DNA from: an uncultured Rothia sp.
GTDB taxonomy: Bacteria > Actinomycetota > Actinomycetes > Actinomycetales > Micrococcaceae
Direction: 5' to 3'
NCBI RefSeq assembly: GCF_937976295.1
Contig: NZ_CALJRY010000298.1
Location: forward strand, 1-33,952
Length of the DNA: 33,952 nucleotides
Shown: positions 2,304 through 33,952 of the stretch, in pieces
Layout: every line of letters starts with the position of its first letter
Numbering within the stretch: position 1 is the first letter of the stretch
Notes under the pieces: generated by a model
What the model saw: the letters and a program-made list of their open reading frames with translations, nothing else
Database searches by the model: none
What the model was told of the DNA's origin: nothing
Program-made: the position numbers and the translations under genes

Positions 2304-2455
2304 ATTCTGAAGGTTCCACCCGCTGCAAAACTAGCGAATGCATCACCCGCCGCGGTGGGCAGAACAATCAGAAAGCTATCACGGCACCTCGAGAAATCGA
2401 GGACAGCCCGCGGCCCGGACCGCCCGAGCTGACGCCCTGATTTGAAAGGCGCATT

Positions 2456-8893: not shown

Positions 8894-9667
8894 CTACTCG
8901 TAGGTAGGCATCGCCGATTCGACGAGAGTTGCGTGCAGCTGCAGGCACAACTTGCGGATCTTATCGGCTCGTTCCTGCGCCTGAGCCTGGGAGGCTGCAT
9001 CGCGGCGCGATGCCAGCGGAGCCACCGCAATTTCCACAAGGGAAATTTCGCGGTCTGCCGCGGACTTGAATGCGCGCAGGTGACGGGGCTGAATGCCGTG
9101 CTGGGTCAGTTCTGCACTAACGCGGGCAATCAGCACGTCGTAATCGGTGTACTCCACATCCGAACCGTCTTCGAGCAGTCCAAAGTCAATCAGCTCGCGA
9201 ATCAGTTCGGGAGTGGTGTTAGCATATTCTGCCAGCTCACGGAGAGTGTAGGTGCGACCTTCCTGCTCGTTCGGGCCAAGGACGGTGTCTAGCACGTCTT
9301 CGCTTACGGTGGCAGGCATGGAGTTCAGTACGCGACCGGCTTCCATGTCTTCCAGGTGCTGACGGATTACCTTGAGCGGCATGTAGTGATCGCGCTGCAT
9401 GGTGAGGATGTAGCGCAGGCGCTCAATGTCCGTCTGGGAGTACTTGCGGTAGCCGGTTTCGGTACGGCTGGGGTGCACGAGACCGCGCTCCTCCAGGAAG
9501 CGAATCTTGGATGCGCTAATTCCGGGGAACTCCAGGTCGAGCTGACTAAGAACCTGACCAATGGTCCGACTCTTAACGTCACGCGGGTTACGGTCAGAGT
9601 TGCCGTTCTCCACGTCCTCTAGTTGAACCTCAGCGTTAGTGAGGTTTTCATCGATGCGTGAGGTCAT
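8894..9667 (-). CDS. MerR-family regulator, Rv1828/FtsR-like
   Basis: TIGQVLSQLDLEFPGISASKIRFLEERGLVHPSRTETGYRKYS...QRDHYMPLKVIR and GIQPRHLRAFKSAADRE. Confidence 0.9.
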   Translation of the reverse strand: MTSRIDENLTNAEVQLEDVENGNSDRNPRDVKSRTIGQVLSQLDLEFPGISASKIRFLEERGLVHPSRTETGYRKYSQTDIERLRYILTMQRDHYMPLKVIRQHLEDMEAGRVLNSMPATVSEDVLDTVLGPNEQEGRTYTLRELAEYANTTPELIRELIDFGLLEDGSDVEYTDYDVLIARVSAELTQHGIQPRHLRAFKSAADREISLVEIAVAPLASRRDAASQAQAQERADKIRKLCLQLHATLVESAMPTYE

Positions 9668-11017: not shown

Positions 11018-14000
11018 TTAGCGGGAAGAAATGACGCGCTCGGAGAAGTGGTTCGGGTTACCGAAACGGTGTGCGGTAATCGAAACAGCCTGCTCGCGGA
11101 GGAAGGGCAGCATCTCGATACGGCCAGCCTCGGTGACCGGTGCGAAGTACACTGCAACATCCGGGCGACCACCCAGTGCCGAGTAGATGGACTTCACATC
11201 GTTACCGATGTAGCGGATACGGGTGCCTTCCAGCGGGGTGCCAGCCAGTGCGCGAACCGGGGTCTTAGCGTTCGAAGCCAGGTACTCGCGGAACTGAGCG
11301 TCCGACTTGACTTCGTACTTGATGCCCTTGTTCTCGAGGACGCCACGGACGTCGACCGGCAGGTCCTTACCGACGGACAGAGCGACCGGTGCGTTAGCTG
11401 CCAGACCGGCGAGCACAACGCGCAGGGTCTCTGCTGCGGATGCGGACTCGTCTGCACGAACCAGAACCTGGGTGGGTACGTAGCGCAGGATGTTGCGCTC
11501 CACGCCCAGCTTCGAAGGATCGTGACCGAAGCCGAACTCGGTGTCCCAAGCGTGTGCGTCAGAGGAGACACCGCGCTTGATGAATGCGAAGTCCTCGCGC
11601 TTGCCCAGCTCGGAGTTCTCGATGGTAGCCAGGGTCTCGCGGACGGTCACCGACTGGGTGGTTGCGGTCGCGGTTGCCTGTGCGGGCTCCCAATCGGACA
11701 GAGCGATCAGGTAGCTGGGGCCACCAGCCTTGGTACCGGAACCCACGGTGGACTTCTTCCAACCACCGAAGGGCTGACGCTGAACGATTGCACCGGTAAT
11801 TGCACGGTTGACGTACAGGTTACCTGCCTGGACCTTGGAGAGCCACAGCTCGAGCTCGTCAGCATCCAGCGAGTGCAGACCTGCGGTCAGGCCGTAATCG
11901 GGTGCGTTCTGCAGCTCGATTGCCTCTTCCAGGGTGTCAGCGGTCATGATGCCCAGAATGGGGCCGAAGTACTCGGTCATGTGGTACTCGGAACCGGGCT
12001 TGACGCCTTCACGAACACCGGGGCTCCACAGGCGACCGGTCTCGTCCAGTTCCTTGGGCTGAATGAGCCAGCGCTCGCCCGGGCCGAGGGTGGTCAGACC
12101 GCGCAGCAGCTTCTCTTCCGGCTTCTGAACAACGGGGCCCATCTCGGACTCGATGTCCTGCGGGTGTGCCACGTGCAGGGAGCTGACGGAGTCAATCAGC
12201 TGACGGCGGAAACGCTCGGAGTGTGCCACGGAGCCAACCAGGATAACGGTCGAACCAGCGGAGCACTTCTGACCTGCGTGGCCGAATGCCGAGTAGACGA
12301 CGTCCTTGACGGCGAGGTCGATGTCAGCGTTCGGGGTGACGATGATCGAGTTCTTACCCGAGGTCTCACCGAACAGGGGCAGGTCATCACGCCAGGAGCG
12401 GAAGAGCTCAGCAGTCTCGTAACCACCGGTCAGGATCAGGCGGTCAACCTCGGGGTGCGAGATGAGCAGCTTGCCTGCAGCGCGGTCAACAACCTTGACG
12501 AGCTTCAGAACTTCCTTGGGAACGCCTGCTTCCCACATGATCTCTGCGATCAGGGCACCGGTGCGAGCGGTGATGGTTGCGGGCTTGAAGATGACAGCAG
12601 AACCTGCAGCCAGACCAGCCAGAACACCACCGGCGGGGATAGCGGTCGGGAAGTTCCACGGGGGAACAACCAGGGTCAGGTCAACAGACTTGGGCTTTGC
12701 ACCGTCGATCTTCTCGAGGTCCTCAGCCAGCATTGCGTAGTAGTATGCGAAGTCGATTGCCTCGGAGACCTCGGTGTCGCCCTGCTCCAGGGTCTTGCCA
12801 GCCTCAGCTGCCATAACCTCCAGCAGGTCACCGCGGCGCAGTGCGATAGCCTTACCGACCTTGCGCAGAATCTCTGCACGCTCGTGGCCGGAGAGCTTGC
12901 CCCATGCCTTGCCAGCTTCCTCGGTTTCCTTGATCAGCTTCTCAGCCTCAGCCTCGCTGGTCAGCTCGTTAGCCTTGAGGGTATCGATGCCCAGCTTGGT
13001 GGTCTTGGAGCGCTCGAGGATTGCGCGGCCCCACTCACGGTTACCTGCCAGTGCGGGGTCGGTATCGGGGGTGTTCTCGAAGCGGCCAGCCGGTACGAAG
13101 ACGTTGTCCTCGTTCTCGGTCAGGCGGTTCTGGGTACGCTTGGGTGCGGGAACCTCGTCGGTGACGGAGTTCAGTGCACGCATGAAGCGGTCCTCTTCGC
13201 GCTTGAAGATGGACTCGTCGGTTGCCAGTTCGAAGATACCGGACATGAAGTTCTCGGAGGAAGCGTTCTCCTCGAGACGACGAATCAGGTATGCGATTGC
13301 AACGTCGAATTCCTTGGGGTTCACGACGGGCACGTACAGCAGCAGGTGGCCAACGCGGCGGCGGATGATCTCTGCCTGCTGCTCAGCCATACCGATCAGC
13401 ATCTCGAACTCGACGCCATCCTGCGCGCCGCGGTCCTCGGCCAGCAACAGAGCGAAAGCAACGTCGAAGAGGTTGTGACCTGCAATACCGAGGCGAACGT
13501 TCTTGGTGTGCTCGGGGCGCAGTGCGTAGTCCAGAACGCGCTTGTAGTTGGTGTCAGAAGCCTGCTTGGTGTCCCAGGTGGTCAGCGGCCAGCCGTGCAT
13601 AACAGCTTCCACGATTTCCATGGAGAGGTTTGCACCCTTAACCAGGCGGACCTTGATGCCTGCGCCGCCAGCAGCAACGCGCTTTGCGGACCACTCCTGC
13701 AGGTGCTGCATTGCAGCCAGGGTGTCGGGCAGGTATGCCTGGAGCACGATACCGGCTTCCAGGTCCTTCAGGTGGGGCTGGTCCAGAATCTTGGTGAACA
13801 CCTCAATGGTGAGGTCCAGATCCTTGTACTCCTCCATGTCCAGGTTGATGAACTTCTTGGGGGAGGTGGATGCAGCCAGCTCGTACAGCGGGGTCAGGCG
13901 GCGAACAGCGGTCTCAACAACCTCGTCGAATGCCCAGTGCTGGTGGGGGCCGGAAACAGCGGACACCTTAATGGAGACGTAGTCAACGTCGTCACGTGCC

Positions 14001-14509
14001 AGCAGGCGCCTGGTCTCAGCCAGGCGGTGCTCTGCTTCCTTATCACCCAGAACTGCCTCACCGAGCAGGTTGACGTTCAGGCGGTTACCGGTCTTGGTCA
14101 GCTCTGCAATTGCGTCGCCCAGCTTCTCCTCGGAAGCGTCGACAATCAGGTGACCAACCATCTCGCGCAGCACGCGGCGTGCAACGGGAACGGTGGGCCA
14201 TGCGACCTTGCCAGCCAGCTTGCCACCGAAGCCAACAGCGGACTTCATGTACCAGGGCAGGAAGGAAGGTGCCAGGCCGGAAATGCGGGAAAGGTTGCGG
14301 CCGGAGACGTTGTCGTCCTCGGGGCGAATAACGCCATCAACAAAGCCGACGGTGAAGGGAAGGCCATTGGGGTCCTTCAGAACACCGGCGAGCTGCTCAG
14401 CCGCGAAGGTGGGCTTGATCGACTGGGACTCGTTTACCCACTGGCGAACAAGCTGACGAGCTTCCAGAGCCATCTTCTGGTAGTGCTCAGATGCGAAAGG
14501 ATGGGTCAT
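11018..14509 (-). CDS. putA: Bifunctional proline dehydrogenase / P5C dehydrogenase
   Basis: PRODH motifs NLDMEE, GIVLQAYL, RLVKGAN and YLIRRLEEN; ALDH motifs PPWNFP, ETSGKN, GQKCSA and EYFGP. Confidence 0.95.
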   Translation of the reverse strand: MTHPFASEHYQKMALEARQLVRQWVNESQSIKPTFAAEQLAGVLKDPNGLPFTVGFVDGVIRPEDDNVSGRNLSRISGLAPSFLPWYMKSAVGFGGKLAGKVAWPTVPVARRVLREMVGHLIVDASEEKLGDAIAELTKTGNRLNVNLLGEAVLGDKEAEHRLAETRRLLARDDVDYVSIKVSAVSGPHQHWAFDEVVETAVRRLTPLYELAASTSPKKFINLDMEEYKDLDLTIEVFTKILDQPHLKDLEAGIVLQAYLPDTLAAMQHLQEWSAKRVAAGGAGIKVRLVKGANLSMEIVEAVMHGWPLTTWDTKQASDTNYKRVLDYALRPEHTKNVRLGIAGHNLFDVAFALLLAEDRGAQDGVEFEMLIGMAEQQAEIIRRRVGHLLLYVPVVNPKEFDVAIAYLIRRLEENASSENFMSGIFELATDESIFKREEDRFMRALNSVTDEVPAPKRTQNRLTENEDNVFVPAGRFENTPDTDPALAGNREWGRAILERSKTTKLGIDTLKANELTSEAEAEKLIKETEEAGKAWGKLSGHERAEILRKVGKAIALRRGDLLEVMAAEAGKTLEQGDTEVSEAIDFAYYYAMLAEDLEKIDGAKPKSVDLTLVVPPWNFPTAIPAGGVLAGLAAGSAVIFKPATITARTGALIAEIMWEAGVPKEVLKLVKVVDRAAGKLLISHPEVDRLILTGGYETAELFRSWRDDLPLFGETSGKNSIIVTPNADIDLAVKDVVYSAFGHAGQKCSAGSTVILVGSVAHSERFRRQLIDSVSSLHVAHPQDIESEMGPVVQKPEEKLLRGLTTLGPGERWLIQPKELDETGRLWSPGVREGVKPGSEYHMTEYFGPILGIMTADTLEEAIELQNAPDYGLTAGLHSLDADELELWLSKVQAGNLYVNRAITGAIVQRQPFGGWKKSTVGSGTKAGGPSYLIALSDWEPAQATATATTQSVTVRETLATIENSELGKREDFAFIKRGVSSDAHAWDTEFGFGHDPSKLGVERNILRYVPTQVLVRADESASAAETLRVVLAGLAANAPVALSVGKDLPVDVRGVLENKGIKYEVKSDAQFREYLASNAKTPVRALAGTPLEGTRIRYIGNDVKSIYSALGGRPDVAVYFAPVTEAGRIEMLPFLREQAVSITAHRFGNPNHFSERVISSR

Positions 14510-22592: not shown

Positions 22593-24149
22593 ATGACGAC
22601 TTCTCTGCACTCCGCAACCCTCGACACCGAGCGCAAGTACATCCTCTCCATCGACCAGGGCACCACCAGCTCCCGCGCGATTCTGTTCAACAAGGCAGGT
22701 GAGAACGTAGCACAAGGTCAGCTCGAGCACGAGCAGATCTTCCCCAAGGCAGGCTGGGTCGAGCACGACGCAACCGAGATTTGGCAGAACGTCCGCAAGG
22801 TCGTAGCAACCGCAATGGCAAACGGCGAAATCAACCACCACGAAATCGCTGCAGTCGGCATCACCAACCAGCGTGAAACCACCGTCGTGTGGGACAAGAA
22901 CACCGGCGAGCCCGTCTACAACGCAATCGTCTGGCAGGACACCCGCACCCAGGAAATCGTTGAAGAACTCGCAGGCGAAGAGGGCGTTGGCAAGTACCAC
23001 GACATCGTCGGTCTGAACCTCTCCACCTACTTCTCCGGCCCCAAGATCAAGTGGATCCTGGACAACGTTGAAGGCGCACGCGAGCGCGCAGAGCGCGGCG
23101 ACCTGCTCTTCGGCAACACCGACACCTGGCTGGTCTGGAACCTGACCGGTGGTGTTGACGGCGGCGTTCACGTCACCGACGTAACCAACGCATCCCGTAC
23201 CCTGCTGATGAACATCCGCACCCTCGAATGGGATCCGCAGATTGCCGCAGACATGGGTATCCCCATGAGCATGCTGCCCGAGATCAAGTCCTCCTCCGAG
23301 GTGTACGGCTTCGGCCGCGCAACCGGCCTGCTCAGGGGAACCCCCATCGCGGGTATCCTCGGCGACCAGCAGGCTGCAACCTTCGGTCAGGCTTGCTTCG
23401 AGAAGGGCATGGCGAAGAACACCTACGGTACCGGTAACTTCATGCTCATGAACACCGGCAACGAGCCCGTCTTCTCCAACAACGGCCTGCTGACCACTGT
23501 CGCCTACAAGATTGGCGACGCAGCTCCCGTCTACGCTCTGGAAGGCTCGGTCGCAATGAGCGGCTCCCTGATCCAGTGGCTGCGCGACAACCTGCGCATG
23601 ATCGAGCACGCTGCAGAATCTGAAGAGCTGGCTACCTCCGTCAAGGACTCCGGTGGCTGCTACGTTGTTCCCGCGTTCTCCGGCCTGTTCGCGCCTCACT
23701 GGCGTTCCGACGCTCGTGGCGTCATCGTTGGCCTGACCCGCTACGTGAACCGCGCACACATCGTGCGTGCAGCGCTGGAAGCAACCGCATTCCAGACCCG
23801 CGAGGTTCTGGACGCAATGAACGCTGACTCCGGCGTTGAGCTCTCCGAGCTGCGCGTGGACGGCGGCATGACCGCTAACGAGTTCCTCATGCAGTTCCAG
23901 GCTGACATCCTCGGCGTCCCTGTGATCCGCCCGAAGGTTGTTGAGACCACCGCTCTGGGCGCTGCATACGCTGCGGGTATCGCTGTTGGTTTCTGGACCG
24001 GCGAGCAGGATGTTGTGGACAACTGGGCTGAGGACAAGCGCTGGCTGCCCTCCATGGAGCCCGCAGAGGTTGACCGTCAGTACCGCCTGTGGAAGAAGGC
24101 TGTCTCCCGCACCCTCGAATGGGTTGACGAAGACGTTCCGACCGCCTAA
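22593..24149 (+). CDS. glpK: Glycerol kinase
   Basis: [43 protein letters not shown] and VDGG. Confidence 0.97.
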
Positions 24150-24204
24150 TCCGACCGCCTAATCGCAGTACCCGTCGCCTGACGGCACGGCCCGCGCACT
24201 AGCG

Positions 24205-24256
24205 AAGCCCCGGCTGCTTCTGCCCCGCTACAGGGGGAGGCAGTCGGGGCTTTTCG
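24205..24256 (+). terminator. Intrinsic terminator of the glp operon
   Basis: AAGCCCCGGCTGCTTC / GAGGCAGTCGGGGCTT stem (G-U pairs on +) followed by T-rich sequence. Confidence 0.8.
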
Positions 24257-24270
24257 CTGTTTTATGACGC

Positions 24271-24318
24271 TCAATACAGGTTGTGCCTGACCACGAAGAG
24301 TCAGGCACAAACTATTGA
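24271..24318 (-). terminator. Long hairpin closing the Hsp70 operon
   Basis: TCAATA..TTGTGCCTGAC / GTCAGGCACAA..TATTGA, immediately downstream of the grpE-like stop. Confidence 0.65.
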
Positions 24319-24330
24319 ATCGCCAAAAGG

Positions 24331-25089
24331 CTACATGCCGGAGGGGTTATTCAGCACAGGGTTATTCGGCACAGTAGGAAGCGGGATGGTGCGGTCATCC
24401 TCTCCAATATCCCCGGTACCGTTTTCAGCCGCATCCTGAGGGCGGGTAGTAGCCGTTCCGCTAGAGGCGGCGGGCTGACGGTTCGGCATATCCCTCGCCA
24501 CGATTACACGAGCGGGACGCAAAGTCCGGTCGCCCAGAATATACCCTTCCCGCTCCACCGATACCACGGTACCTGCAGGGTAATCGGGCGCAGAAGGAAC
24601 CACACCCGAAACCTCGTGGATTGCCGGATTGAACTTACCCACCGCATCGATGCGCTGCAGTCCGCGGATCTCAAAAATGCTGACGATCTCGTCGGCAACA
24701 GACTCGCTCAGCGATGCGCTCGCTTCCTGATTCAGCAGACGGTCCAGGGCGTTGAGTACATCGCGGAAGAGGGAACGGTACGCCTCACCTGAAGCTCGTT
24801 CGTCACGCTCCTGCAGGCTAGCCTGCACGGAACGAATGAGCTGGTTCTTAGCGCCGTCCTCCGCTATACGCTGCGCAAAACGCTGATTCAGCTCAGCGAG
24901 CTGGCCAAGCACGCGTACCTCAAAATCTTCAGTCACAAAAGGTGAGGTAGGCTGAGGGGCTTCCTCCTTCGCGGTGTCTGTCACCCCCTCATGCGTTTCC
25001 TCGTGCGGAGGCTTTTCTTTTGCCTCGCCACTAACCGGCCACAGTTCAGGCTCAGGGACGACAGCGTCCTGAGGGTCATACGTTGACAC
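24331..25089 (-). CDS. grpE: GrpE-family nucleotide exchange factor (accessory paralogue)
   Basis: LFRDVLNALD, GKFNPAIHEV and VVSVEREGYILGDRTLRPARVIVA. Start moved to GTG 25089, 7 nt after AAAGGAGA (track start 25116). Confidence 0.85.
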   Translation of the reverse strand: MSTYDPQDAVVPEPELWPVSGEAKEKPPHEETHEGVTDTAKEEAPQPTSPFVTEDFEVRVLGQLAELNQRFAQRIAEDGAKNQLIRSVQASLQERDERASGEAYRSLFRDVLNALDRLLNQEASASLSESVADEIVSIFEIRGLQRIDAVGKFNPAIHEVSGVVPSAPDYPAGTVVSVEREGYILGDRTLRPARVIVARDMPNRQPAASSGTATTRPQDAAENGTGDIGEDDRTIPLPTVPNNPVLNNPSGM

Positions 25090-25214
25090 GGTCACATCTC
25101 CTTTCACAGTTATCAATGCTTGCGGTACGCCCCCGCTCTGAAGCCGCTACGGCTGACAGAGCGGGAGCATCAAGGAAGATAGGTGCTCTCCCCTGCGTTC
25201 TTTGACGGCTTTCC

Positions 25215-26465
25215 TTAACGGCCCAGCCTACTCAAGCTTCGGATGAAGATACCGAAAATCATCAGGATGACGCCCAGAATTCCCGTTGCAGTTCGAGTGG
25301 GGTCATACCCCTGCCCCGTTAAAGCCCTCTGGTTGGTCTTCCAATAGGGCGGGAACGAAGTATAGAAAGCAAAGAGGGGAAGAAGGATGAACGTCACCAG
25401 CGTCATGTATCCGTTGATCGTGTCGTAAGCAGCCTGGTTTGACGAACGGATCGCCCCCTGCAGGAGCGCCCAAATGACGCTCAGGACCAAAGACCCTGCA
25501 AAGAACGTCACCACAAAGCGCACCAGCCTTCCGAAGGTAAAAGGACGGCGGCGGGCAAAACGCATGTTCTCTTCAATGTTCCGGTACTTCTGCATCAAAT
25601 CGTAGGGAAGCAGGTACGCGTCCCGGACCTTTGACAGGCTCGAACGAATCGCCTTCACCTGCTCTTTCGAGTTGATGATGGTTATCCCGTTATAGATAAC
25701 GCCGTGGGAGTCTGCCTCCTCCATGTGGATGATGGCGTGCAGACGTAACATCTGCGGGTTATCGGGGTATGCCGCAAGTGCGTTATCCGCATCTTGCAGA
25801 GCTTCAGCGTGCTGTCCCGCATTCCAACGACTGATGATGAAGTCGCTGATGTAGTCGGTGTCTCCCGGTTTCAGAGCCATCAGCTGACGGTTGATACCCA
25901 TGACGCGCTCGTGGTCTCCGTCGCGTTGAGCCAGGCTGCGCTCCATCATGAGGAGGAATTCCTCGTGCTCCGAACCGTAACGGCGTGCCTGCGAAATAGC
26001 GTGCATGACATCTCGGCGACGGTTGTAGTCCCAATCGCCCCACAGGTACGCCGCCGCCAGTTTCTCCCACGCTTCAACATCATCGGGACGAATCCGGTGC
26101 ATTGCCTGAGCGAACTTTACCAGAGAGTTCCAGTTCTCGTTTTCCCAGGCGTAGCGCATGTCAGCGCGCAGGCGTTCCTCTTTAGAATCTCCGCCCGTAG
26201 AACGAGGCTCCGCAGAAGGTCGGGGTGCGAATCCTCGACGCTTCAGCGACTCATCATAAGAGGCGCGGACAGAAGGATTCAGCAGAGTCTGCTCAACCCG
26301 GTCTAGCAACTCCAGGCGGTCCTCACCCTCACGTGCCTTGGCGCGTTCAGGGTGACTGGTCAACAGTCGGTACCGTTTGCGTTGCTCACGCAACGCTTTC
26401 TCCACGTCCTCAGCCGTCGCGTTGTGTGGAAGGCCGAGAACCTCGTAAAAATTCTCAGTAGTCAT
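25215..26465 (-). CDS. J-domain protein B (HPE variant) with TPR-like repeats and 3 predicted C-terminal TM helices
   Basis: NFYEVLGLPHNAT...HPE...LLNPSVRASYD; TPR-like RPDDVEAWEKLAAAY, LKPGDTDY and AYPDNPQML; hydrophobic C-terminal segments. Confidence 0.85.
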   Translation of the reverse strand: MTTENFYEVLGLPHNATAEDVEKALREQRKRYRLLTSHPERAKAREGEDRLELLDRVEQTLLNPSVRASYDESLKRRGFAPRPSAEPRSTGGDSKEERLRADMRYAWENENWNSLVKFAQAMHRIRPDDVEAWEKLAAAYLWGDWDYNRRRDVMHAISQARRYGSEHEEFLLMMERSLAQRDGDHERVMGINRQLMALKPGDTDYISDFIISRWNAGQHAEALQDADNALAAYPDNPQMLRLHAIIHMEEADSHGVIYNGITIINSKEQVKAIRSSLSKVRDAYLLPYDLMQKYRNIEENMRFARRRPFTFGRLVRFVVTFFAGSLVLSVIWALLQGAIRSSNQAAYDTINGYMTLVTFILLPLFAFYTSFPPYWKTNQRALTGQGYDPTRTATGILGVILMIFGIFIRSLSRLGR

Positions 26466-26519
26466 AGATACTCATATCTCACCGGTGTTCCATCACCGGT
26501 GGTCATGGGTAGCGGGAGG

Positions 26520-28070
26520 CTAGTTCACCTCCATGCCGCCGATCTTGCGCTGCGCCTCCTGCACTTCTTCAGGTCGCAGGTTGGCCACACGCTCAATGTT
26601 GAAAGAGCCGAGAGAAGCATTAGCGGTCAGGTCAATCACCTCAACACGAACCGTCTGGTCCACGTCGTAGGCGTAGATGACCTTCAGCGGCGCACCCTTC
26701 GGGTAGGCGGGCAGGGAAAGCTCGCCGGTACCAACAACGGTCACCAGCTCGGGGTCGCGTTCCTCGCCCTGAGTGACCTTAATGTCCAGGGCGTTCTGAC
26801 CGTCGAGCAGGGTTCGGGTGTTCTGTTCGTGGGTGCAGGGAACCTTAGTGTTACGCGGAATCACCACGTGGTTAAAAGTCGAACCGTCGGCGTTGTAGAG
26901 GATAATGCCCAGCGCCTGGCTGGTCACGTCGCTAATCTTGACGCTACCGCCCAGGAAGCCCTCAACAGTTGCCTTGGAACCAACCTGCTCCGTGCTGACC
27001 TCCACGTCGCCAGACAGGGTTGCCTGAACTGCAGCGCCGAGAGCAACCGCCTCATCAGGGTTAATATCGAGCTCAGGGGTCTTGCCGGAGATACGCTCCA
27101 CCAGGGTTCGGACCGCAGGCATGCGAGTCGAGCCGCCCACCAGCAGCACCTTATCGATATCAGCCCAGGTCAGCTTCGCCGCGCTCAGAACATCCTCGAG
27201 AACCTCCTGGGTACGGTTCAGAAGGCTGACCGTGCACTCCTCAAACTCCTCACGAGTCAGCGGCACACGGTAGTGCTGACCCTCGGCGGAGAACTGCACG
27301 TTCGTCTTCGGAACAGTCGACAGCGCCTTCTTCGCAAACTCAGCCTTCTCACGCAACGCAGCGGTGAGGGAAGGATCTTCCAGAGCGTCCGGAGCGCCCT
27401 GCTCCATCAGACGCTTATTCAGGTATTCCATCAGGGCGTTATCGAAATCGAAACCACCCAGGTTACGGTCGCCGTCAGTAGCCAGAACCTCAAATTCGGT
27501 ACCGCTAATCTTCAAAATAGTGACGTCAAAAGTGCCACCGCCCAGGTCGTACACCAGCACGGTGCCGTTGGCGTCAGCTTCCACACCGTACGACAGGGCT
27601 GCAGCGGTCGGCTCGTTCAGCACACGCAAAACGTTCAGGCCGGCAATCTGACCCGCGTGGGCGGTGGCGGTACGACGTGCATCATCAAAATAAGCGGGTA
27701 CGGTGATGACGGCGTCGGTGACCTCTTCGCCCAGGGCAAGCTCAGCGTCTTCCTTCAGACGCTTCAGGATAATTGCAGAAACTTCCTCAGCGGTGTACTG
27801 GGTGCCCGAAGAAGCATCAAAACGCCAGGTCGGGTCGCCAATAAAACGCTTGACGTACTGGACGATATCCTCGGGGAATGCCGCTGCCTGGCGCTTCGCC
27901 TGCTCGCCCACCAGAGGCTCGTCCGCACCGCCGAAGGATTGGAAAAGCACCACGGAGGGGGTCACGGTGTCGCCTTCCTTGTTGCGAAGCACCTCAGGCA
28001 CACCAGTAGGACGAACCACCGAAACTGCAGAGTTCGTGGTTCCCAGGTCAATACCAATTGCAATACCCAT
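26520..28070 (-). CDS. Hsp70-family chaperone B (516 aa, no helical lid)
   Basis: GIDLGTTNS, VITVPAYF, RVLNEPTAAAL, YDLGGGTFDV, LLVGGSTRMP and NPDEAVALGAA; SBD-beta IPRNTKVP..VTQGE. Confidence 0.95.
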   Translation of the reverse strand: MGIAIGIDLGTTNSAVSVVRPTGVPEVLRNKEGDTVTPSVVLFQSFGGADEPLVGEQAKRQAAAFPEDIVQYVKRFIGDPTWRFDASSGTQYTAEEVSAIILKRLKEDAELALGEEVTDAVITVPAYFDDARRTATAHAGQIAGLNVLRVLNEPTAAALSYGVEADANGTVLVYDLGGGTFDVTILKISGTEFEVLATDGDRNLGGFDFDNALMEYLNKRLMEQGAPDALEDPSLTAALREKAEFAKKALSTVPKTNVQFSAEGQHYRVPLTREEFEECTVSLLNRTQEVLEDVLSAAKLTWADIDKVLLVGGSTRMPAVRTLVERISGKTPELDINPDEAVALGAAVQATLSGDVEVSTEQVGSKATVEGFLGGSVKISDVTSQALGIILYNADGSTFNHVVIPRNTKVPCTHEQNTRTLLDGQNALDIKVTQGEERDPELVTVVGTGELSLPAYPKGAPLKVIYAYDVDQTVRVEVIDLTANASLGSFNIERVANLRPEEVQEAQRKIGGMEVN

Positions 28071-28192
28071 AAGTCATTCTCTTTCTAATCGTATGCTTAC
28101 TGCGGCAAAATACCGCAGATGTATATGTGAGTTAGCGTTTCTTGTGATGTCTTCGATAGCCGGCGTTCGCACTACGGCGTCCCGTTTCAGGG

Positions 28193-29527
28193 CTACGTCA
28201 GCGGTTCGACTCGCTTCACCCCGTACCACCACGGCACAGGAGGTGCCAACGGAGAGTTCTTCTTCGCACGCTTCACAAAGGACCGGTCATCGGACCAGCG
28301 GGCGGGGAAAGCCGCCGCCATGAATACGTACGGGAACAGGATGACCTGTATAAGATCCTTGATCCACACAGATACCGCGATATCAGCCGGAATTGCGCTC
28401 AAACCAAGTAGCTCCACAAGCTGCGGAAGGAACAGGTAATTCGCGAGGAAAAGCGTGACCATAGTCCCCATGAGGGTCAGGCGGCTTCTGCGTCGTCGGG
28501 CGGCAGCTACAGCTCCGCGAACCTCCTGCACAGCCTGCTCAAGTTCAGCAAAACCGTTCAGAGGCAACCTCTTCAGCTGGGACAGGCGCAACTGCGCCAA
28601 ACGAACCTGGGCGGAACTCACCATCAGCCCCAGAGGCGAGCGCGAGGTAGCATAAGGGTTGGGCCCAGCAAAACCGCCGTACGTGCAACGATAGACGTCG
28701 TAGAGCAGAGCCCATGCGTACGTCTGAACAATCGCCGCGTCACGGCGACCGGACTTGTACTCTTCACGCGCTTCACGTATCGCCTCACGGGTATGCCCGG
28801 CCCCTGCCTGCTGCACTATTGCCTGTGCTGCTTCCAGCTGCTGGGGGTCCGAGTCCCGCCTCTCGAGCTGAGGAAGAATGCGGTACGGAGTCCTCCAGGG
28901 CTCGTTCGGCGCGGGGGTACGTTGAGCCGGAGCTTCTTTCTTCGGCTTCTCCTTCTTCCGAGATGCCTTACGTTTCTTCGGCTTTTCTGGCTTCTGACTC
29001 TTCTGAGCAGGCTCAGGGACCGCAGGCTCAACCGGAGGCTGGTTAGGAACAGGCTGAGTCGGAGGTGTCGTCGCCGAAGGATGCGGTGCATCCGGCGCGT
29101 CAGGCACACGCTGACGCAAACGCTCTAGCTCCTGCTCGTGTTCTTGCTCCTTGCGGCGCATCTCCTGCCGCATACGTTCCATCTCACGCCGCATCTGCTC
29201 GGCCTGTTGCTGAGCGTCAATGGTCTGCCGTTGCAGGTCCTCATTCGGTTGAACAGGTACAGTCTGTTCAGCCCCTGCGTTTCCACCGGCCGGGGCTGTC
29301 GGGGAGCTCTGAAGATTCGCATCGTAGGTCGCACGAGACTGCTGATCCAGCAGATGCTTCTCTGCCTCAGCAATCAGCTGCATCAGTCGTTCGCTCTCGT
29401 GACGCTTTTCTGCGTTCGGGTGATTCGCGCGTGCCCGGGCAGAACGACGCTTCTGAACGATTGCCTCACGCACCTGTGCTTCGGTTGCGTTCGGTTCAAT
29501 CTCCAGGATTTCGTAGTAATTCTGCAT
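28193..29527 (-). CDS. J-domain protein A (HPN variant) with coiled coil, Pro/Lys-rich linker and 2 predicted C-terminal TM helices
   Basis: NYYEILEIEPNAT...HPN...LLDQQSRATYD; Q/E/R-rich coil; hydrophobic segments near the C-terminus. Confidence 0.85.
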   Translation of the reverse strand: MQNYYEILEIEPNATEAQVREAIVQKRRSARARANHPNAEKRHESERLMQLIAEAEKHLLDQQSRATYDANLQSSPTAPAGGNAGAEQTVPVQPNEDLQRQTIDAQQQAEQMRREMERMRQEMRRKEQEHEQELERLRQRVPDAPDAPHPSATTPPTQPVPNQPPVEPAVPEPAQKSQKPEKPKKRKASRKKEKPKKEAPAQRTPAPNEPWRTPYRILPQLERRDSDPQQLEAAQAIVQQAGAGHTREAIREAREEYKSGRRDAAIVQTYAWALLYDVYRCTYGGFAGPNPYATSRSPLGLMVSSAQVRLAQLRLSQLKRLPLNGFAELEQAVQEVRGAVAAARRRRSRLTLMGTMVTLFLANYLFLPQLVELLGLSAIPADIAVSVWIKDLIQVILFPYVFMAAAFPARWSDDRSFVKRAKKNSPLAPPVPWWYGVKRVEPLT

Positions 29528-29671
29528 GACGATAGCTGGTCCTCATCGCTTTCTCGTCGGTCTTTGTAGACGTTTTACAGATGGTTTGTGTAGGGGTGCT
29601 TGAGGCCCGGTACCGAGCATCAAGCTATAGGGCTGTTCGTCCGCCCCGACGGGTATATAGCTACCCGTCAC

Positions 29672-31234
29672 CTACATGATGGTCATGCCACCAATTCGTT
29701 TCTTTGATTCCTCCACCTGAGCCTCCTTCAAATTGGACACTCGCTCGATGCTGAACGTGCCCAGAAGGATTCCGGAGGTCAGGTCCTTCACCTCCGCGTG
29801 GATAATCTGATCACGATCGTAGCTGTAGGTGATGGATAGCGGTGCGCCCTTAGGGTAAGGCGGCATGCGAAGGGTCGCTTCACCCACTAGAGTGACAAAA
29901 TCTGGATCCCTGTCATCTCCCTGAGTCACACGGAATTTGACTTCGCTCTGGTAGTCACAGACGGTCTTTACAGTAGTCGTCTCGTTCGCCGGCAAGGGAG
30001 TATTACGGGGGATGATGATGCTGTTGATCTCATCCTTCTCGTTCTCGTCCAGTACCAGCACGCCCAGTCCCTGACTTGTCACGTCCTGCACACGCACCGG
30101 GGCACCGATGTAGCCTTCAACTGCTGAGCGTCCGCCAAGGTATCCGACGGTCTCCTGGCTTTCCGGTGCCAGAAGTGCCGCCTGTACCGCTGCTCCGAGA
30201 GCTACAGCTTCATCGGGGTTGATGCTCGTATCTGGTTCTTTCCCGCTCAGGGTCTTGAGCATTGCGCGAACGGCAGGAACACGGGTAGACCCACCGACCA
30301 GAAGCACACGGGAGATGTCAGACCAGTTCAGACGCGCTGATTCCAGGGTATCGATGACCAGGTCACGTGTGCGGCGCAGAAGACGCTCAATGCGTCGTTC
30401 AAACTCTGCACGCTCAATAGTGACTCGGTACGAGGCGTTCCCGGCAGCGATCTGTACGGTGGCAGTCGGCGCCGAGGACAGGGTTTTCTTCACCTGTTCC
30501 GCCTGCTCACGCACTACGTTCAGAGTGTTCAGGTCGTCGAGGCAGCTGGGGCCTCCCTGCGAACGGACCTGTTCATCGATCATGAGCTGCAGTTCGCTGT
30601 CGAAGTCATACCCGCCCAGTCGGCGGTCACCGTCCGTTGCTAGAACCGTGAAATCGCCACCTGAAACGTTCAGGATGGTCACGTCAAAGGTACCGCCGCC
30701 CAGATCGTACACCAGGACAGTCTCATGGGTATTTCCCCTCGTGGAGACGCCATATGCGAGCGCCGCAGCCGTGGGTTCGTTCAGTACACCCAGCACGTTG
30801 AGCCCAGCAATTTCACCGGCGTGGCGGGTCGCTAGGCGGCGTGCATCGTCAAAGTATGCGGGCACGGTAATTACCGCGTCCGTGACGGGGACGTTCATCT
30901 GCATCTCGACGTCTTCTTTCAAACGACGCAGAATCATTGCGGAGATTTCCTCCGAGGTGTAGCTGGATCCCGTAGCCGAGTCGAAACGCCAGCTGGACTC
31001 GCCCATGTACCGCTTAACATGCTGAGCAACATCTGAACCGACACGGCTTGCGTGCTGTTTTGCTTGAACGCCAATCAGGGGCTCGTCACCAGCGCCGTAG
31101 TCCTGCAGCAGGACTACAGAGGGGGTCGTATTTGCCCCGTCGCGGTTTCGCACAATCCGCGGCACGCCGGTGGGATCCACCACAGCAGCGGCGGAGTTGG
31201 TTGTGCCCAGGTCAATTCCGATGGCAATTCCCAT
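29672..31234 (-). CDS. Hsp70-family chaperone A (~520 aa, no helical lid)
   Basis: Same Hsp70 motifs as chaperone B. Start placed at ATG 31234 (MGIAIGIDLGTTNS), 6 nt after GGAG and matching the paralogue; track start is 31246. Confidence 0.95.
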   Translation of the reverse strand: MGIAIGIDLGTTNSAAAVVDPTGVPRIVRNRDGANTTPSVVLLQDYGAGDEPLIGVQAKQHASRVGSDVAQHVKRYMGESSWRFDSATGSSYTSEEISAMILRRLKEDVEMQMNVPVTDAVITVPAYFDDARRLATRHAGEIAGLNVLGVLNEPTAAALAYGVSTRGNTHETVLVYDLGGGTFDVTILNVSGGDFTVLATDGDRRLGGYDFDSELQLMIDEQVRSQGGPSCLDDLNTLNVVREQAEQVKKTLSSAPTATVQIAAGNASYRVTIERAEFERRIERLLRRTRDLVIDTLESARLNWSDISRVLLVGGSTRVPAVRAMLKTLSGKEPDTSINPDEAVALGAAVQAALLAPESQETVGYLGGRSAVEGYIGAPVRVQDVTSQGLGVLVLDENEKDEINSIIIPRNTPLPANETTTVKTVCDYQSEVKFRVTQGDDRDPDFVTLVGEATLRMPPYPKGAPLSITYSYDRDQIIHAEVKDLTSGILLGTFSIERVSNLKEAQVEESKKRIGGMTIM

Positions 31235-31289
31235 CGTTTTCTCCATCCCTCGTCGATTAGTGTTTATTCACGGAACGCCACATCTCTGA

Positions 31290-31334
31290 GGCTCCGTATA
31301 GGTTGGCTCCGTATAGGTTGGCTCCGTCTAGGTT
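31290..31334. repeat. 3 x 15-bp tandem repeat abutting the lipoprotein stop codon
   Basis: GGCTCCGTATAGGTT x2 followed by GGCTCCGTCTAGGTT. Confidence 0.85.
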
Positions 31335-31957
31335 TAGAAGGTCGTGTATGAGTCCCTACTCATGAACGCGCCGTGACCAGTTGTGTGGTCCCAGCAGGTC
31401 ACGCCCTTTTCCGTCGCGCCACAGACGATGTTCCCGCTGTACACGCTGGTGTTATACAGCAGCACGGCATCAGTCTGGGTAAAGGTTTCAGGGGTTTCGT
31501 GAGAGGTCAGGCGTGCTTCTTCTGCGGTGAAATCAATCCACCAGAGGGGCTCGCCATCGGCTGCTACTCCGTAGGGTTTATCGTCGTAATAGTTCACGAT
31601 TCCACACCCAAATTTTCCGTCGATATTCTGGCAAATAATGTTGCCGGTCGGAGAGCGGAAAATCGGAGCGGTCAGCCCGTTACGGGTCGTTGAAGAAAGC
31701 AGCTCAACAGCATCGGAGGGGATGCGCTTCTCCCCTGCTCCGGGGTATGCATCGGCCGGGATCTTCCCCTTCTTGGGGGTGCTCGAGGAGCTGAACTGGA
31801 TACCGCGGAAGAGGTTCTCCACGAATCCTCCGCCGCTACCATCGGGATGTGTGTACCCCCAGATATTTCCACATCCGGTCAGCAGGCAGGCTAGAGTAAT
31901 GGCCAGCGTGGCACCCACGCCACGGCGAGGTTGCTTCTTCTTATTGTCAACGTTCAT
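31334..31957 (-). CDS. Putative lipoprotein with a Cys-containing beta-rich domain
   Basis: Basic N-terminus, hydrophobic stretch and lipobox LTG|C; FRSPTGNIIC...C...C...VTC pattern recalled from actinobacterial secreted hypotheticals; AAGGAAG RBS. Confidence 0.8.
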   Translation of the reverse strand: MNVDNKKKQPRRGVGATLAITLACLLTGCGNIWGYTHPDGSGGGFVENLFRGIQFSSSSTPKKGKIPADAYPGAGEKRIPSDAVELLSSTTRNGLTAPIFRSPTGNIICQNIDGKFGCGIVNYYDDKPYGVAADGEPLWWIDFTAEEARLTSHETPETFTQTDAVLLYNTSVYSGNIVCGATEKGVTCWDHTTGHGAFMSRDSYTTF

Positions 31958-31992
31958 TGTTCTTCCTTCCTGCGGCCTTCCTGTAAGGGCTC

Positions 31993-32026
31993 CCGTAGAG
32001 CCCGGCTAGTGTGCCGGGCTCTACGG
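31993..32026. other. Perfect 14-bp intergenic stem-loop within the operon
   Basis: CCGTAGAGCCCGGC-TAGTGT-GCCGGGCTCTACGG; no U-tract. Confidence 0.75.
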
Positions 32027-32037
32027 CTGACAAACGG

Positions 32038-33952
32038 TTACACGCCCCAGGGTAGTACCCCGCGGCGGGCCTTCGTCAGCGCTTCACGTCCATCCGGGTC
32101 GGTTTCCATCTTCTCTTCAAATGCTCGGTACTGGTCGAGCACCATTGCGTCAATGACCTCACGTTCACGAGAGCCGAAGATGGGAGTAGGTAGTAGCTCT
32201 TCCAGGCGGCGAAGGACTGCCTGAGAAATAAGCATTGTGCCTTCCGTCTTGTAGAGGTAGGGCAATGCGTAGCCCACGCGAAGTACCGTCACCGGCAATC
32301 CCCATTCGTAATGAATGGTGAAGGCGAGGTTCTCGGTCAGCTCAGCGACCTCATGATCGAAAGTACCGCTCTGGAATTTTGCCGGATACGACACATCGTA
32401 GGGCGCACCGGGTTCGCATTCCACGCATCGACGGTAATGCTCCGAGAGAGGGATCGGCTGCTCGTAGAGCTTGCCGTCGGTGCGGTAGGTCGCGGTAGAG
32501 CAGGGGGTCTGCTCGTACCTCTCGTCGTAGTCCAGAGCGCCGGTTTCAAGAATGATAACCTTCGGGTTGTACGCGCTAAGTTGCGTCAACAGGCTGTTGA
32601 GGGCTTCGTCCCGCTGGATATCAGGCACCTGCCCGTAAACGAGTACGAGGTGATGGTCAGGGGTTACCCCCTCCTCACCGGGCAGGAGCATATGCCGAAT
32701 TCGCATTTCCAGAGCTTCGTCACTCTCGTAGAGTGCCTTATTCATCTGGTCAACGCGGAAGGAGCGTTCCTCCGGCGCCATGAGGGCGACGGTACGCAGA
32801 GGCTGGCAGTTCGTCCAGCGGCTGTCCTTCGGACCGCGACGGTAATCCACCATACCGGGGTACACGCCAAATACAACGGTGCATTCGGCACCTTCAGCCA
32901 GCTCCTGAGCCATCCGCTGTGCGTTCATCTCCTGTTCCATGTTCTCGGAAGCGGATGCTTCGTCTTCAGCCGCGTTCTTGATATCCACCTGAATGTTGGG
33001 GTTACGGGTGACCTCGTACCATTGGGCGTTCGGGTCCTTCGAGAAGGTTGAGGCTCGGTACACTATTTCGGCGTATGCCTCAAACTCGACTGCCACGCGT
33101 GTGGCCAACTCAAAATCCCAGATAATTCCTTGGACAATGTCCACGTCAATCGGCAACTCTTCTACCTGCGGGTATTCTTCGGCCGCCTGCATACGATTCG
33201 TCTGCCAGGCGGTCAGGGCATGGCTACCTGCAGCCATCTGGTAGGTCATTTGGTAGAGCGCTTCAACCGATTGGATGTCCTGCAGCAGTTCTTCGCCGAA
33301 GGGGAAATACTCCGTCTCACGCAGGTGGTTCGTCAAAATCCACAGCATGTGCGATGCTCCCCAAACGTGAGGTCCCATACCCAAAATCTGAGGAACACTA
33401 ATGCGGTAGATGTAGACGTTCAGGGTGCTCTTATTCCCGAATATCTCGGCGATTTCTTCAGCACTCAGAGAGGAACCAATTTCCGGGGTAGATTTGATGA
33501 GATCGTTGCCTTCAATGCAGGGTGTTTTACCGCGACCATCGGCGGGAAAAGCCGAGTGGTCCTTCCAGAAAACGCGGGGCTTGAATGAGCTGTGCAGGCT
33601 GAGGTTAACAATCTCTTCGCGCTGCCCTTTGGCGGTTCCAGGCGCGCCCTTCATGGGCACAGAGTAGGTGGTAAATGATTCATAGCCGGGGCCCAGCTTC
33701 TCATTGGCTACACCAATAATGTGGGAGGCTAGCACGTACACCTTAGTACGGTTCCAGGTTTCGGCGGCGCGAAGTTTCGAGGCGAAAAGGGCCAGCTTGG
33801 CGTAGAACCCCTGGGGGTTCCTATCCGGTGCATCACCGGTTACCAAGTACAGTCGAGGCGTTCCGTACAGGCTGGATAGCGCATACTTCTGGTTGGCGGG
33901 CCCAAAGTCTGCGCCCATTACCAGGTGGCATACGGGAGGGTTCAGGGGAGGT
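32038..33952 (-). CDS. Large hypothetical protein (at least 626 aa), probably 5'-truncated by the window
   Basis: The frame stays open from ATG 33918 to the window edge (...PPLNPPVCHLV-MGADF), with no RBS before 33918. No family recognised. Confidence 0.75.
   Translation of the reverse strand, partial: PPLNPPVCHLVMGADFGPANQKYALSSLYGTPRLYLVTGDAPDRNPQGFYAKLALFASKLRAAETWNRTKVYVLASHIIGVANEKLGPGYESFTTYSVPMKGAPGTAKGQREEIVNLSLHSSFKPRVFWKDHSAFPADGRGKTPCIEGNDLIKSTPEIGSSLSAEEIAEIFGNKSTLNVYIYRISVPQILGMGPHVWGASHMLWILTNHLRETEYFPFGEELLQDIQSVEALYQMTYQMAAGSHALTAWQTNRMQAAEEYPQVEELPIDVDIVQGIIWDFELATRVAVEFEAYAEIVYRASTFSKDPNAQWYEVTRNPNIQVDIKNAAEDEASASENMEQEMNAQRMAQELAEGAECTVVFGVYPGMVDYRRGPKDSRWTNCQPLRTVALMAPEERSFRVDQMNKALYESDEALEMRIRHMLLPGEEGVTPDHHLVLVYGQVPDIQRDEALNSLLTQLSAYNPKVIILETGALDYDERYEQTPCSTATYRTDGKLYEQPIPLSEHYRRCVECEPGAPYDVSYPAKFQSGTFDHEVAELTENLAFTIHYEWGLPVTVLRVGYALPYLYKTEGTMLISQAVLRRLEELLPTPIFGSREREVIDAMVLDQYRAFEEKMETDPDGREALTKARRGVLPWGV

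Follow-up and report, generated by a model that had tools for sequence, protein, structure and literature searches.

What does a bacterium that already has DnaK do with two further Hsp70s, each followed by its own membrane-anchored J protein, and with a second GrpE? The question is raised by a seven-gene block at positions 24331-33952 of a contig from an uncultured Rothia sp. The whole contig (33,952 nucleotides, G000:C298) was analysed and is called the window here, and the locus is essentially identical to Rothia mucilaginosa records. Our answer, to which we give a probability of roughly 0.55, is that the block specifies an accessory Hsp70 machine, dispensable and tethered to the membrane, that belongs to a distinct actinobacterial family. 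The client set of the Rothia machine is probably narrow. According to the open reading frame (ORF) listing and Pfam, the region is filled by seven co-oriented minus-strand genes, all with open frames, which end at a hairpin in the following 5' to 3' order.

32038-33952 (ORF 32038-33918/33951), minus strand: soluble orphan protein of no family, 5' end cut by the contig end
31334-31957, minus strand: predicted lipoprotein of 207 residues, no family, with a signal peptide and an L-T-G-C lipobox
29672-31246, minus strand: Hsp70-A, 520-524 residues, Pfam PF00012 HSP70, E 3e-117
28193-29527, minus strand: J-A, 444 residues, Pfam PF00226 DnaJ domain, 33 bits
26520-28070, minus strand: Hsp70-B, 516 residues, Pfam PF00012 HSP70, E 2e-128
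25215-26465, minus strand: J-B, 416 residues, Pfam DnaJ domain and TPR
24331-25116, minus strand: GrpE paralogue, 261 residues from a TTG start (start uncertain), PF01025, 63.9 bits
24281-24310, minus strand: 12-bp GC-rich hairpin, likely the module terminator, 21 nt past the grpE stop

A first-pass annotation of the same DNA had described seven co-oriented genes with two short Hsp70s, each followed by its own membrane J protein, and one GrpE, and the ORF listing, Pfam and hydrophobicity bear this description out.

Two lidless Hsp70s apart from DnaK

Both Hsp70s score below the NCBIfam cut-offs for DnaK (NF001413, 648 bits, against 391 for Hsp70-A and 432 for Hsp70-B; TIGR02350, 822, against 380 and 424) and for HscA (708 bits, against 333 and 371), and the GrpE of the block is below every NCBIfam GrpE cut-off. 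No isc genes occur in the window. The Pfam HSP70 match of both proteins ends near profile position 510 of 599, and all 26 aligned accessory Hsp70s end near DnaK position 525 of 638, so that the C-terminal alpha-helical lid is missing. The peptide-binding beta domain is retained in both Rothia Hsp70s, and the accessory Hsp70s keep the ATPase motifs DLGTT, K70, NEPTAA, and DLGGGTFD. Hsp70-A carries LGVLNEPT, with Gly at the position of DnaK Arg167, and Hsp70-B keeps the Arg. The interdomain linker of the accessory Hsp70s reads VRVQD or VKISD in place of VLLLD and is preceded by an insert of 15-50 residues. Hsp70-B is 46% identical to the DnaK of its own genome, 55% to Hsp70-A, and 33% to E. coli HscC. 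That DnaK, the third Hsp70 of the genome, is encoded on contig C224 (610-614 residues) with a canonical grpE beside it, and the grpE of the block is the second of the two in the genome.

We built a tree of 34 Hsp70 rows (quick search, LG+G4, Shimodaira-Hasegawa-like approximate likelihood ratio test, SH-aLRT), in which the two window copies and 23 of 72 related loci (see below), hand-picked for diversity with one Collinsella only, were set beside three E. coli proteins (DnaK, HscA, and HscC) and 5 actinobacterial DnaKs. All 26 accessory rows fall into a single clade (SH-aLRT 100, stem 0.77), with the actinobacterial DnaKs apart (100). HscC is placed with the accessory clade at SH-aLRT 87, on a branch of 1.81 that is flagged as long and holds one HscC sequence only. 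Both Hsp70s of the block belong to this well-supported clade apart from DnaK, and the block is set apart from the DnaK and HscA systems. The first-pass annotation had proposed an accessory set distinct from housekeeping DnaK, to be compared with DnaK, HscA, and HscC by phylogeny; the accessory rows do not group with DnaK, and the cut-offs, the loss of the lid, and the separate dnaK and grpE agree with the tree.

The block supplies the three functional classes of the canonical cycle, and the ATPase residues are intact, as in the housekeeping DnaK-GrpE-DnaJ(-HspR) operon, and multiple DnaK paralogues are common in bacteria according to the sections of a review available to us (PMC13580251). These features would fit a back-up general stress chaperone set, i.e., a second DnaK/DnaJ/GrpE for heat or proteotoxic stress. 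We nevertheless consider such a role improbable, given that the Hsp70s form a separate clade, score below the cut-offs, and have no lid in 26 of 26 cases; that the J proteins are membrane-anchored and, by Pfam, have neither a Zn-finger nor C-terminal client-binding domains; that the family is rare and dispensable; and that the genome has a housekeeping dnaK, with its grpE, on another contig. The regulatory features of the housekeeping operon are also missing. Rfam gave 0 matches over the whole window, 0 sites resembling the HspR-associated inverted repeat (HAIR) were found at <=3 mismatches from the consensus, and Pfam found no MerR-type gene within the block. The absence of hspR, CxxCxGxG repeats, and HAIR sites, already remarked on in the first-pass annotation, thus holds within these searches.

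The same annotation had named E. coli HscC with DjlB/DjlC, which has no GrpE of its own at the locus, as the closest precedent. The likeness stands in part. According to the available sections of two papers (PMC8215388, PMC10410713), that system also combines a specialised Hsp70 with a shortened C-terminus and membrane-anchored class C J proteins. J-B shares the HPE motif and the membrane anchor with DjlB/DjlC, and the J-protein genes at the hscC locus are duplicated as well, with Sel1 repeat proteins present there. Beyond the J domain, however, we find no similarity to DjlC (hhalign probability 0.2%, with 32 J-domain columns aligned), and Hsp70-B shares only 33% identity with HscC, whose placement in the tree is unsure due to the long branch. 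Further differences are that the Rothia block contains no DUF1266 genes, that TPR is fused to J, that the lid is fully absent, that the Hsp70 itself is duplicated, and that a GrpE is encoded in the block but not at the hscC locus. According to a review, an exchange factor is not required by HscC.

A conserved triad in Actinomycetota

We obtained 72 related loci from a pattern scan of species genomes, and their neighbours were then found with profiles built from those loci. About 37 of the 72 are from Collinsella, so counts over loci are not independent. The conserved core consists of a lidless Hsp70, a short GrpE, and a J-TPR protein that carries membrane helices at its C-terminus. The J gene adjoins the Hsp70 gene in 68 of the 72 loci, the exceptions being L052, L065, and L068, which belong to a distinct Actinopolymorpha-type subclade, and L053, at a contig end. 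GrpE is nearby in 57/72; it is missing from L010 and L052, from loci at contig ends, and from the whole of a Cryptosporangium-type clade. Full triads occur in Rothia, Collinsella, Senegalimassilia, Bifidobacterium pullorum, a Micrococcales isolate, Actinopolymorpha, Natronosporangium, Allorhizocola, Actinosynnema, a Pseudonocardiaceae metagenome-assembled genome, and Streptomyces, and the window itself has the triad, with the Hsp70 and J pair twice and GrpE once. The gene-neighbourhood search that the first-pass annotation had suggested hence gives an order conserved in other genomes. Two loci from bins of other phyla, L071 (Treponemataceae) and L054 (Anaerovoracaceae), share the gene order of the Collinsella and Senegalimassilia loci and are probably mis-binned rather than cases of cross-phylum transfer.

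The genes that flank the triad vary by lineage, some being housekeeping and some defence-like. The Collinsella module sits at one stable chromosomal site beside hydrogenase-maturation genes across many species, and several actinomycete triads neighbour guaB, guaA, and bpa. In 42 of the 72 loci, mostly from Collinsella, the triad is followed by a soluble ATPase of the FtsK/SpoIIIE family (790-990 residues; e.g., L016:13125-15830, L011:13226-16198, L060:11985-14936, L061:12101-14626, and L010:7393-9770). The lineages with this ATPase are Collinsella, Bifidobacterium, Nocardioides, Cryptosporangium, three uncultured lineages, and one possibly mis-binned contig. A gene for a small tail-anchored protein follows the ATPase gene in Collinsella and Bifidobacterium.

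The closest solved relatives of this ATPase are the type VII secretion ATPases EccC, YukB, and EccC5, and two large EccC/FtsK-like frames are found elsewhere in the Rothia genome. The machine might, in this light, assist an ATPase that translocates proteins or DNA at the membrane, as in type VII-like secretion or an FtsK-like system; in Rothia, such a partner would be encoded away from the block. We give little weight to this explanation for Rothia, where the genome has no orthologue of the triad-linked ATPase, only a P-loop domain match (about 385-550 of 912); about half of the core lineages are without the ATPase. The soluble orphan protein of the block was tried as a diverged EccC-like ATPase and rejected, being unrelated (hhalign probability 0.07%).

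A full-text literature search, the reach of which excluded most subscription papers, returned no description of a lidless-Hsp70/J-TPR/GrpE triad. No PADLOC, NCBIfam, or Pfam model fits the locus beyond generic domains, and PHROGs gave nothing specific for the J proteins; a match to a characterised system was one of three outcomes that the first-pass annotation said would refute it, and none of the three was seen. The machine would work in the manner of HscC with DjlB/DjlC. In the mitochondrial import motor, the membrane J protein Pam18/Tim14 acts with a dedicated Hsp70 (mtHsp70) and a GrpE-type exchange factor (Mge1) at the membrane face, which makes it the nearest parallel to how the Rothia machine may operate. 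The two differ in that mtHsp70 has a lid and Pam18 a canonical HPD, whereas the Rothia locus contains no translocon gene and shows no homology to the motor beyond the shared domains.

J proteins and their pairing with the Hsp70s

J-B consists of a J domain with an HPE motif, about five TPR-like repeats, and three C-terminal hydrophobic helices (residues 317-335, 349-367, and 393-411). Its AlphaFold2 model (predicted local distance difference test score, pLDDT, 89.6) places the J domain at 1-76, followed by a disordered linker, ten repeat helices at 94-253, and long hydrophobic helices at 311-415, and is helical except for one short beta hairpin. Foldseek with this model returned generic TPR proteins only, with P58IPK among the top matches. 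P58IPK/DNAJC3 likewise joins TPR and J in one protein, but in the opposite domain order and as a soluble protein of the endoplasmic reticulum lumen, and its TM-scores of 0.23-0.25 reflect a generic TPR resemblance.

J-A has a J domain with an HPN motif, a coiled-coil and a Pro/Lys-rich linker, a conserved domain of ~130 residues, and a C-terminal membrane hairpin (hydrophobic stretch at 371-407). It is a diverged paralogue of J-B: the two align from end to end (hhalign 99.6%, 361 columns), with the early repeats replaced in J-A by the coiled-coil and linker. The first-pass distinction between a membrane J-A and a membrane J/TPR-B is correct for the membrane helices of both and the TPR of J-B; Pfam finds no TPR in J-A, yet the two proteins are homologous throughout. 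Across the family, the J proteins (365-464 residues) combine a J domain and TPR repeats with hydrophobic helices at the C-terminus, one to three in number; such helices are present in all 9 of the 9 J proteins examined. Membrane anchoring of the Rothia J proteins, as first proposed, is supported by such helices in both and by the J-B model.

The HPD motif of these J domains is degenerate. Of ~80 ORF hits, which include fragments, 40 have SPD and 8 the canonical HPD, and the other variants are APD, NPD, NAD/HAD, SPE, SAQ, and SPN, in addition to HPN and HPE in the window. HPE is found in ~1% of J domains, including DjlB and DjlC, according to the available sections of PMC10410713. The Gly at position 167 is found in Hsp70-A of the window and of L004, L005, and L006, each time beside an HPN J-A, and Arg167 is kept in Hsp70-B and in the Hsp70 copies of Rothia sp. 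L009, which has a single J. In L067, Gly167 occurs with an SAQ motif. In a classic suppressor pair, DnaJ D35N is suppressed by DnaK R167H (PMC5519331, citing Suh et al. 1998), and the HPN/Gly167 pairing in Rothia is suggestive of a natural echo of this pair. Because Gly167 is paired with HPN in Hsp70-A/J-A, we read the locus as two partly orthogonal pairs, and the best-supported reading for the R. mucilaginosa group is that two partly insulated Hsp70/J pairs would share one GrpE.

We propose the following mechanism for the membrane-tethered machine. The J proteins would sit in the cytoplasmic membrane via their C-terminal helices, with the J domain and the TPR region predicted to face the cytoplasm. 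The repeat region may select its client or partner on the inner side of the membrane, after which the J domain would recruit the cognate lidless Hsp70 and trigger ATP hydrolysis, and the single dedicated GrpE would release ADP and reset both Hsp70s. Because the lid is absent, client holding should be short-lived, which would fit a task such as remodelling, assembling, or extracting a few specific proteins near the membrane better than it would fit general folding. In the evolution of the locus, the Hsp70 gene was duplicated within Rothia, and the R. mucilaginosa group has a second, diverged J protein (J-A) besides; in its partner Hsp70-A, the residue in contact with the J-domain Asp has changed from Arg167 to Gly, paired with the change from HPD to HPN.

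Presence and variability of the block in Rothia

Within a Rothia-only clade (SH-aLRT 99), Hsp70-A and Hsp70-B are sister lineages, each of them also represented in Rothia sp. L009; the duplication is Rothia-specific. The layout in L009 is Hsp70-Hsp70-J-GrpE, compared to Hsp70-A, J-A, Hsp70-B, J-B, GrpE in the R. mucilaginosa group, so the initial statement of one J per Hsp70 applies to that group but not to L009. Accessory Hsp70s were found in 6 of 25 Rothia species genomes, including that of the window and that of R. aeria, where the copies are in pieces. They were found in 0 of 16 genomes of the same order but different families and in 0 of 400 further Actinomycetota genomes at E<=1e-105, a screen in which three candidates per genome were scored against a threshold of our choice and which very divergent members could escape.

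The block is also polymorphic at its own site, the glpK junction at which the first-pass annotation had proposed to look for presence and absence. Genome G002 has a GlpK 98% identical to that of the window and flanks 87-94% identical, yet the whole block is missing at the same site. The absent stretch extends from ~120 bp upstream of the orphan gene to the grpE-side hairpin (24281-24310), which is the last element of the indel block; it measures 10.1 kb in L004 and is replaced by ~90 unrelated bases, with window-G002 homology ending at window 24271. No integrase, phage genes, flanking direct repeats, or target-site duplication were seen at the block edges, only the terminator palindrome. The more distant Rothia sp. 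L009 and R. aeria L069 carry a module at the same ogt-glpK site, and the simplest reading would therefore be ancestral presence of the module with later loss.

Downstream of the block lie glpF and glpK, convergent to the block genes by Pfam. The glpK terminator is the following feature.

24198-24260, plus strand: hairpin of the glpK flank (glpK terminator), back-to-back with the module hairpin

This hairpin is kept in the empty site of G002. The 186-nt spacer between grpE and glpK (24150-24335) folds into strong hairpins (minimum free energy -91 kcal/mol, z = -5.1), which confirms the back-to-back arrangement with the glp terminator noted at first. R. mucilaginosa record L004 (13779-14030) has ~250 extra bases between the two hairpins, corresponding to window 24276-24278. 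The G+C content of window 24000-33952 is 0.556-0.597 per kb, slightly lower than in most of the remaining window (mostly 0.58-0.64). Far from the block and unlinked to it are genes for a MerR-family regulator (8894-9667, minus strand) and for a PutA-type proline dehydrogenase/aldehyde dehydrogenase (11018-14509, minus strand).

Even among near-identical strains, the J genes are hypervariable. Compared with L006, the window shows identities of 98% for Hsp70-B, 92% for GrpE, 95% for the orphan protein, and 93% for the glp flank DNA, while the values are 58-64% for J-A and 47-48% for J-B, whose DNA is unalignable except for a 204-bp stretch. Among L004-L006, Hsp70-B is 98-100% and GrpE 92-93% identical, and these identities point to purifying selection on the Hsp70/GrpE motors. 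Such conservation, with seven open frames and intact catalytic motifs in the window, makes it very improbable that the block is a decaying remnant with no current function in the window strain, even if the fragmented Hsp70 genes of R. aeria, an in-frame TAG in the G020 copy of the orphan gene, and the loss of the block in close relatives would suit such a remnant. In R. aeria AP017895.1 (L069:8272-11552; G001:C1:1244028-1247305), each Hsp70 is split into 2-3 frames, either as pseudogenes or through assembly frameshifts, and a TPR/membrane protein without a J domain is encoded upstream of them (L069:6997-8025).

The rarity of the module, its clean presence or absence as a 10.1-kb block between genomes ~94% identical in the flanks, and the contrast between variable J genes and conserved Hsp70-B would also be expected of an anti-phage or conflict system, in which the J-TPR proteins act as sensors or adaptors and the Hsp70/GrpE motor gates an effector (the orphan protein in R. 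mucilaginosa, an EccC-like ATPase elsewhere). Some lineages have defence-type neighbours, including nSTAND-WD40, GmrSD, Fic, NERD-kinase, XRE helix-turn-helix, DUF4143 ATPase, and UvrD plus RNase T, and HSP70, GrpE, and DnaJ/TPR themes appear in predicted conflict systems, as far as the available sections of Kaur et al. 2020 (PMC7159879) go. Sites of such neighbours (nSTAND1-WD40, GmrSD, Fic, a NERD-kinase, and UvrD helicase with RNase T exonuclease) are L050:12136-15852, L051:10209-11315 and 3684-4457, L042:4768-8991, and L060:15486-20172. Within those sections, the GAP1-N2 GTPase-centric theme resembles the Rothia block in joining an actinobacterial accessory HSP70 to GrpE and a DnaJ/TPR partner, sometimes with a second HSP70-domain gene. 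Pfam, which may have no GAP1 model, detects none of the GTPase, GAP1, or FNIII components of that theme among the seven genes or in the flanks of L004. The theme differs from the block in its FNIII-DnaJ/TPR fusion, since the block has no fn3 hit and the J-B model is helical, and both Rothia Hsp70s keep the peptide-binding beta domain. The PADLOC-DB 2.0 models match 0 families for 6 of the 7 proteins and give only PDC-M16B for J-A (E 3e-4 over 44 residues), and the Collinsella triad has no match either. No effector domain such as a nuclease, TIR, or pore is recognisable in the Rothia block, the edges show no mobile-element genes, the Collinsella triad keeps the stable site described above, and several actinomycete triads lie by housekeeping genes. 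We consider a conflict role unlikely on balance, but it is the rival that we take most seriously.

Two genes lie upstream of those for the chaperones. The first-pass annotation had the machine coupled to the lipoprotein and to a large client or effector encoded by the first gene. That gene is indeed present as an ORF but is cut by the contig end, the window holding residues 96-732 of a frame that has 732 residues in the longer R. mucilaginosa contig L004 (about 726-732 overall). A search of 1.84 billion representatives gave only 7 hits for the protein, which matches nothing in Pfam, NCBIfam, PADLOC, or PHROGs and has no hydrophobic segment. Its AlphaFold2 model, from a 7-row alignment, is unusable (mean pLDDT 34), and its best ESM Atlas score of 0.87, with 120 shared features, is at most a lead. 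In full length it occurs only in genomes that also carry the module, and its N-terminal domain of ~290 residues has paralogues elsewhere (38-40% identity), one of them in a module-free Rothia genome. The paralogue in Rothia G459:C1 (L096, 6174-7805) is 38% identical over 293 residues and continues in a Gln/Pro/Tyr-rich tail; its direct neighbour encodes a Schlafen/AlbA_2 protein, and a type IIG restriction-methylase is encoded two genes away (neighbours 11-2074 and 2259-3572), a setting that would favour a conflict role. Another paralogue is encoded in the genome of the window (G000:C308:209-1087), and in L095 (G020:C39, 2162-4322) the in-frame TAG splits the orthologue in two.

The lipoprotein has one N-terminal hydrophobic stretch (14-32) ending in LTGC and four Cys in its mature part. 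It has no Pfam, NCBIfam, PADLOC, or PHROGs family match and only 4 homologous clusters, all restricted to Rothia. Rothia sp. L009 encodes a lipoprotein-like protein of 479 residues, 46% identical to it, upstream of the module. With this exception, both genes are absent beside the triads of L009, R. aeria L069, and all other lineages, even if they lie within the same 10.1-kb presence/absence block as the chaperones. Because both are Rothia-only orphans rather than conserved partners, a client role for them is unsupported. The self-contained, dedicated membrane chaperone machine of the first-pass annotation is therefore retained in its own Hsp70, J protein, and GrpE, its membrane helices, and its distance from DnaK, but not in its coupling to the two upstream genes.

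Several points weigh against an accessory membrane machine. The rarity, the indel polymorphism, and the hypervariable J genes fit a conflict system equally well. The upstream orphans, being lineage-specific, cannot explain the family. The Cryptosporangium clade is without a detectable GrpE, and both Hsp70 genes are fragmented in the complete genome of R. aeria, so the module can decay. The covariation of residue 167 with the third residue of the J motif is imperfect, since L064 has Gly167 with APD and, in R. aeria, the Hsp70 beside the SPN J protein has Arg167. With a degenerate HPD and an altered linker, J-stimulated ATPase activity could be weak or absent, and the cycle could be unlike that of classical Hsp70s. 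Co-transcription of the seven genes would have to accommodate intergenic gaps of 54-144 bp, as calculated from the ORF coordinates, and the promoter scan was uninformative (1 site, 3.0 expected). A bolder version, which we find doubtful, is that the triad is an undescribed Hsp70-powered machine that acts in conflict or in the gating of a translocating ATPase, with specificity set by the J-TPR proteins and, in R. mucilaginosa, two insulated pairs (HPN/Gly167 and HPE/Arg167) on one GrpE.

Bacterial DnaK paralogues beyond HscA, and to a lesser extent HscC, are largely unexplored "dark matter" according to the available sections of a 2026 review (PMC13580251). The Rothia locus defines one coherent family among them, with a fixed co-chaperone set and a membrane address, whose J domains depart from the near-universal HPD rule. 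The change from Arg167 to Gly beside HPN would be a natural case of Hsp70/J specificity rewiring that mirrors the laboratory suppressor pair, and the presence or absence of the block among near-identical oral Rothia genomes provides natural isogenic-like pairs.

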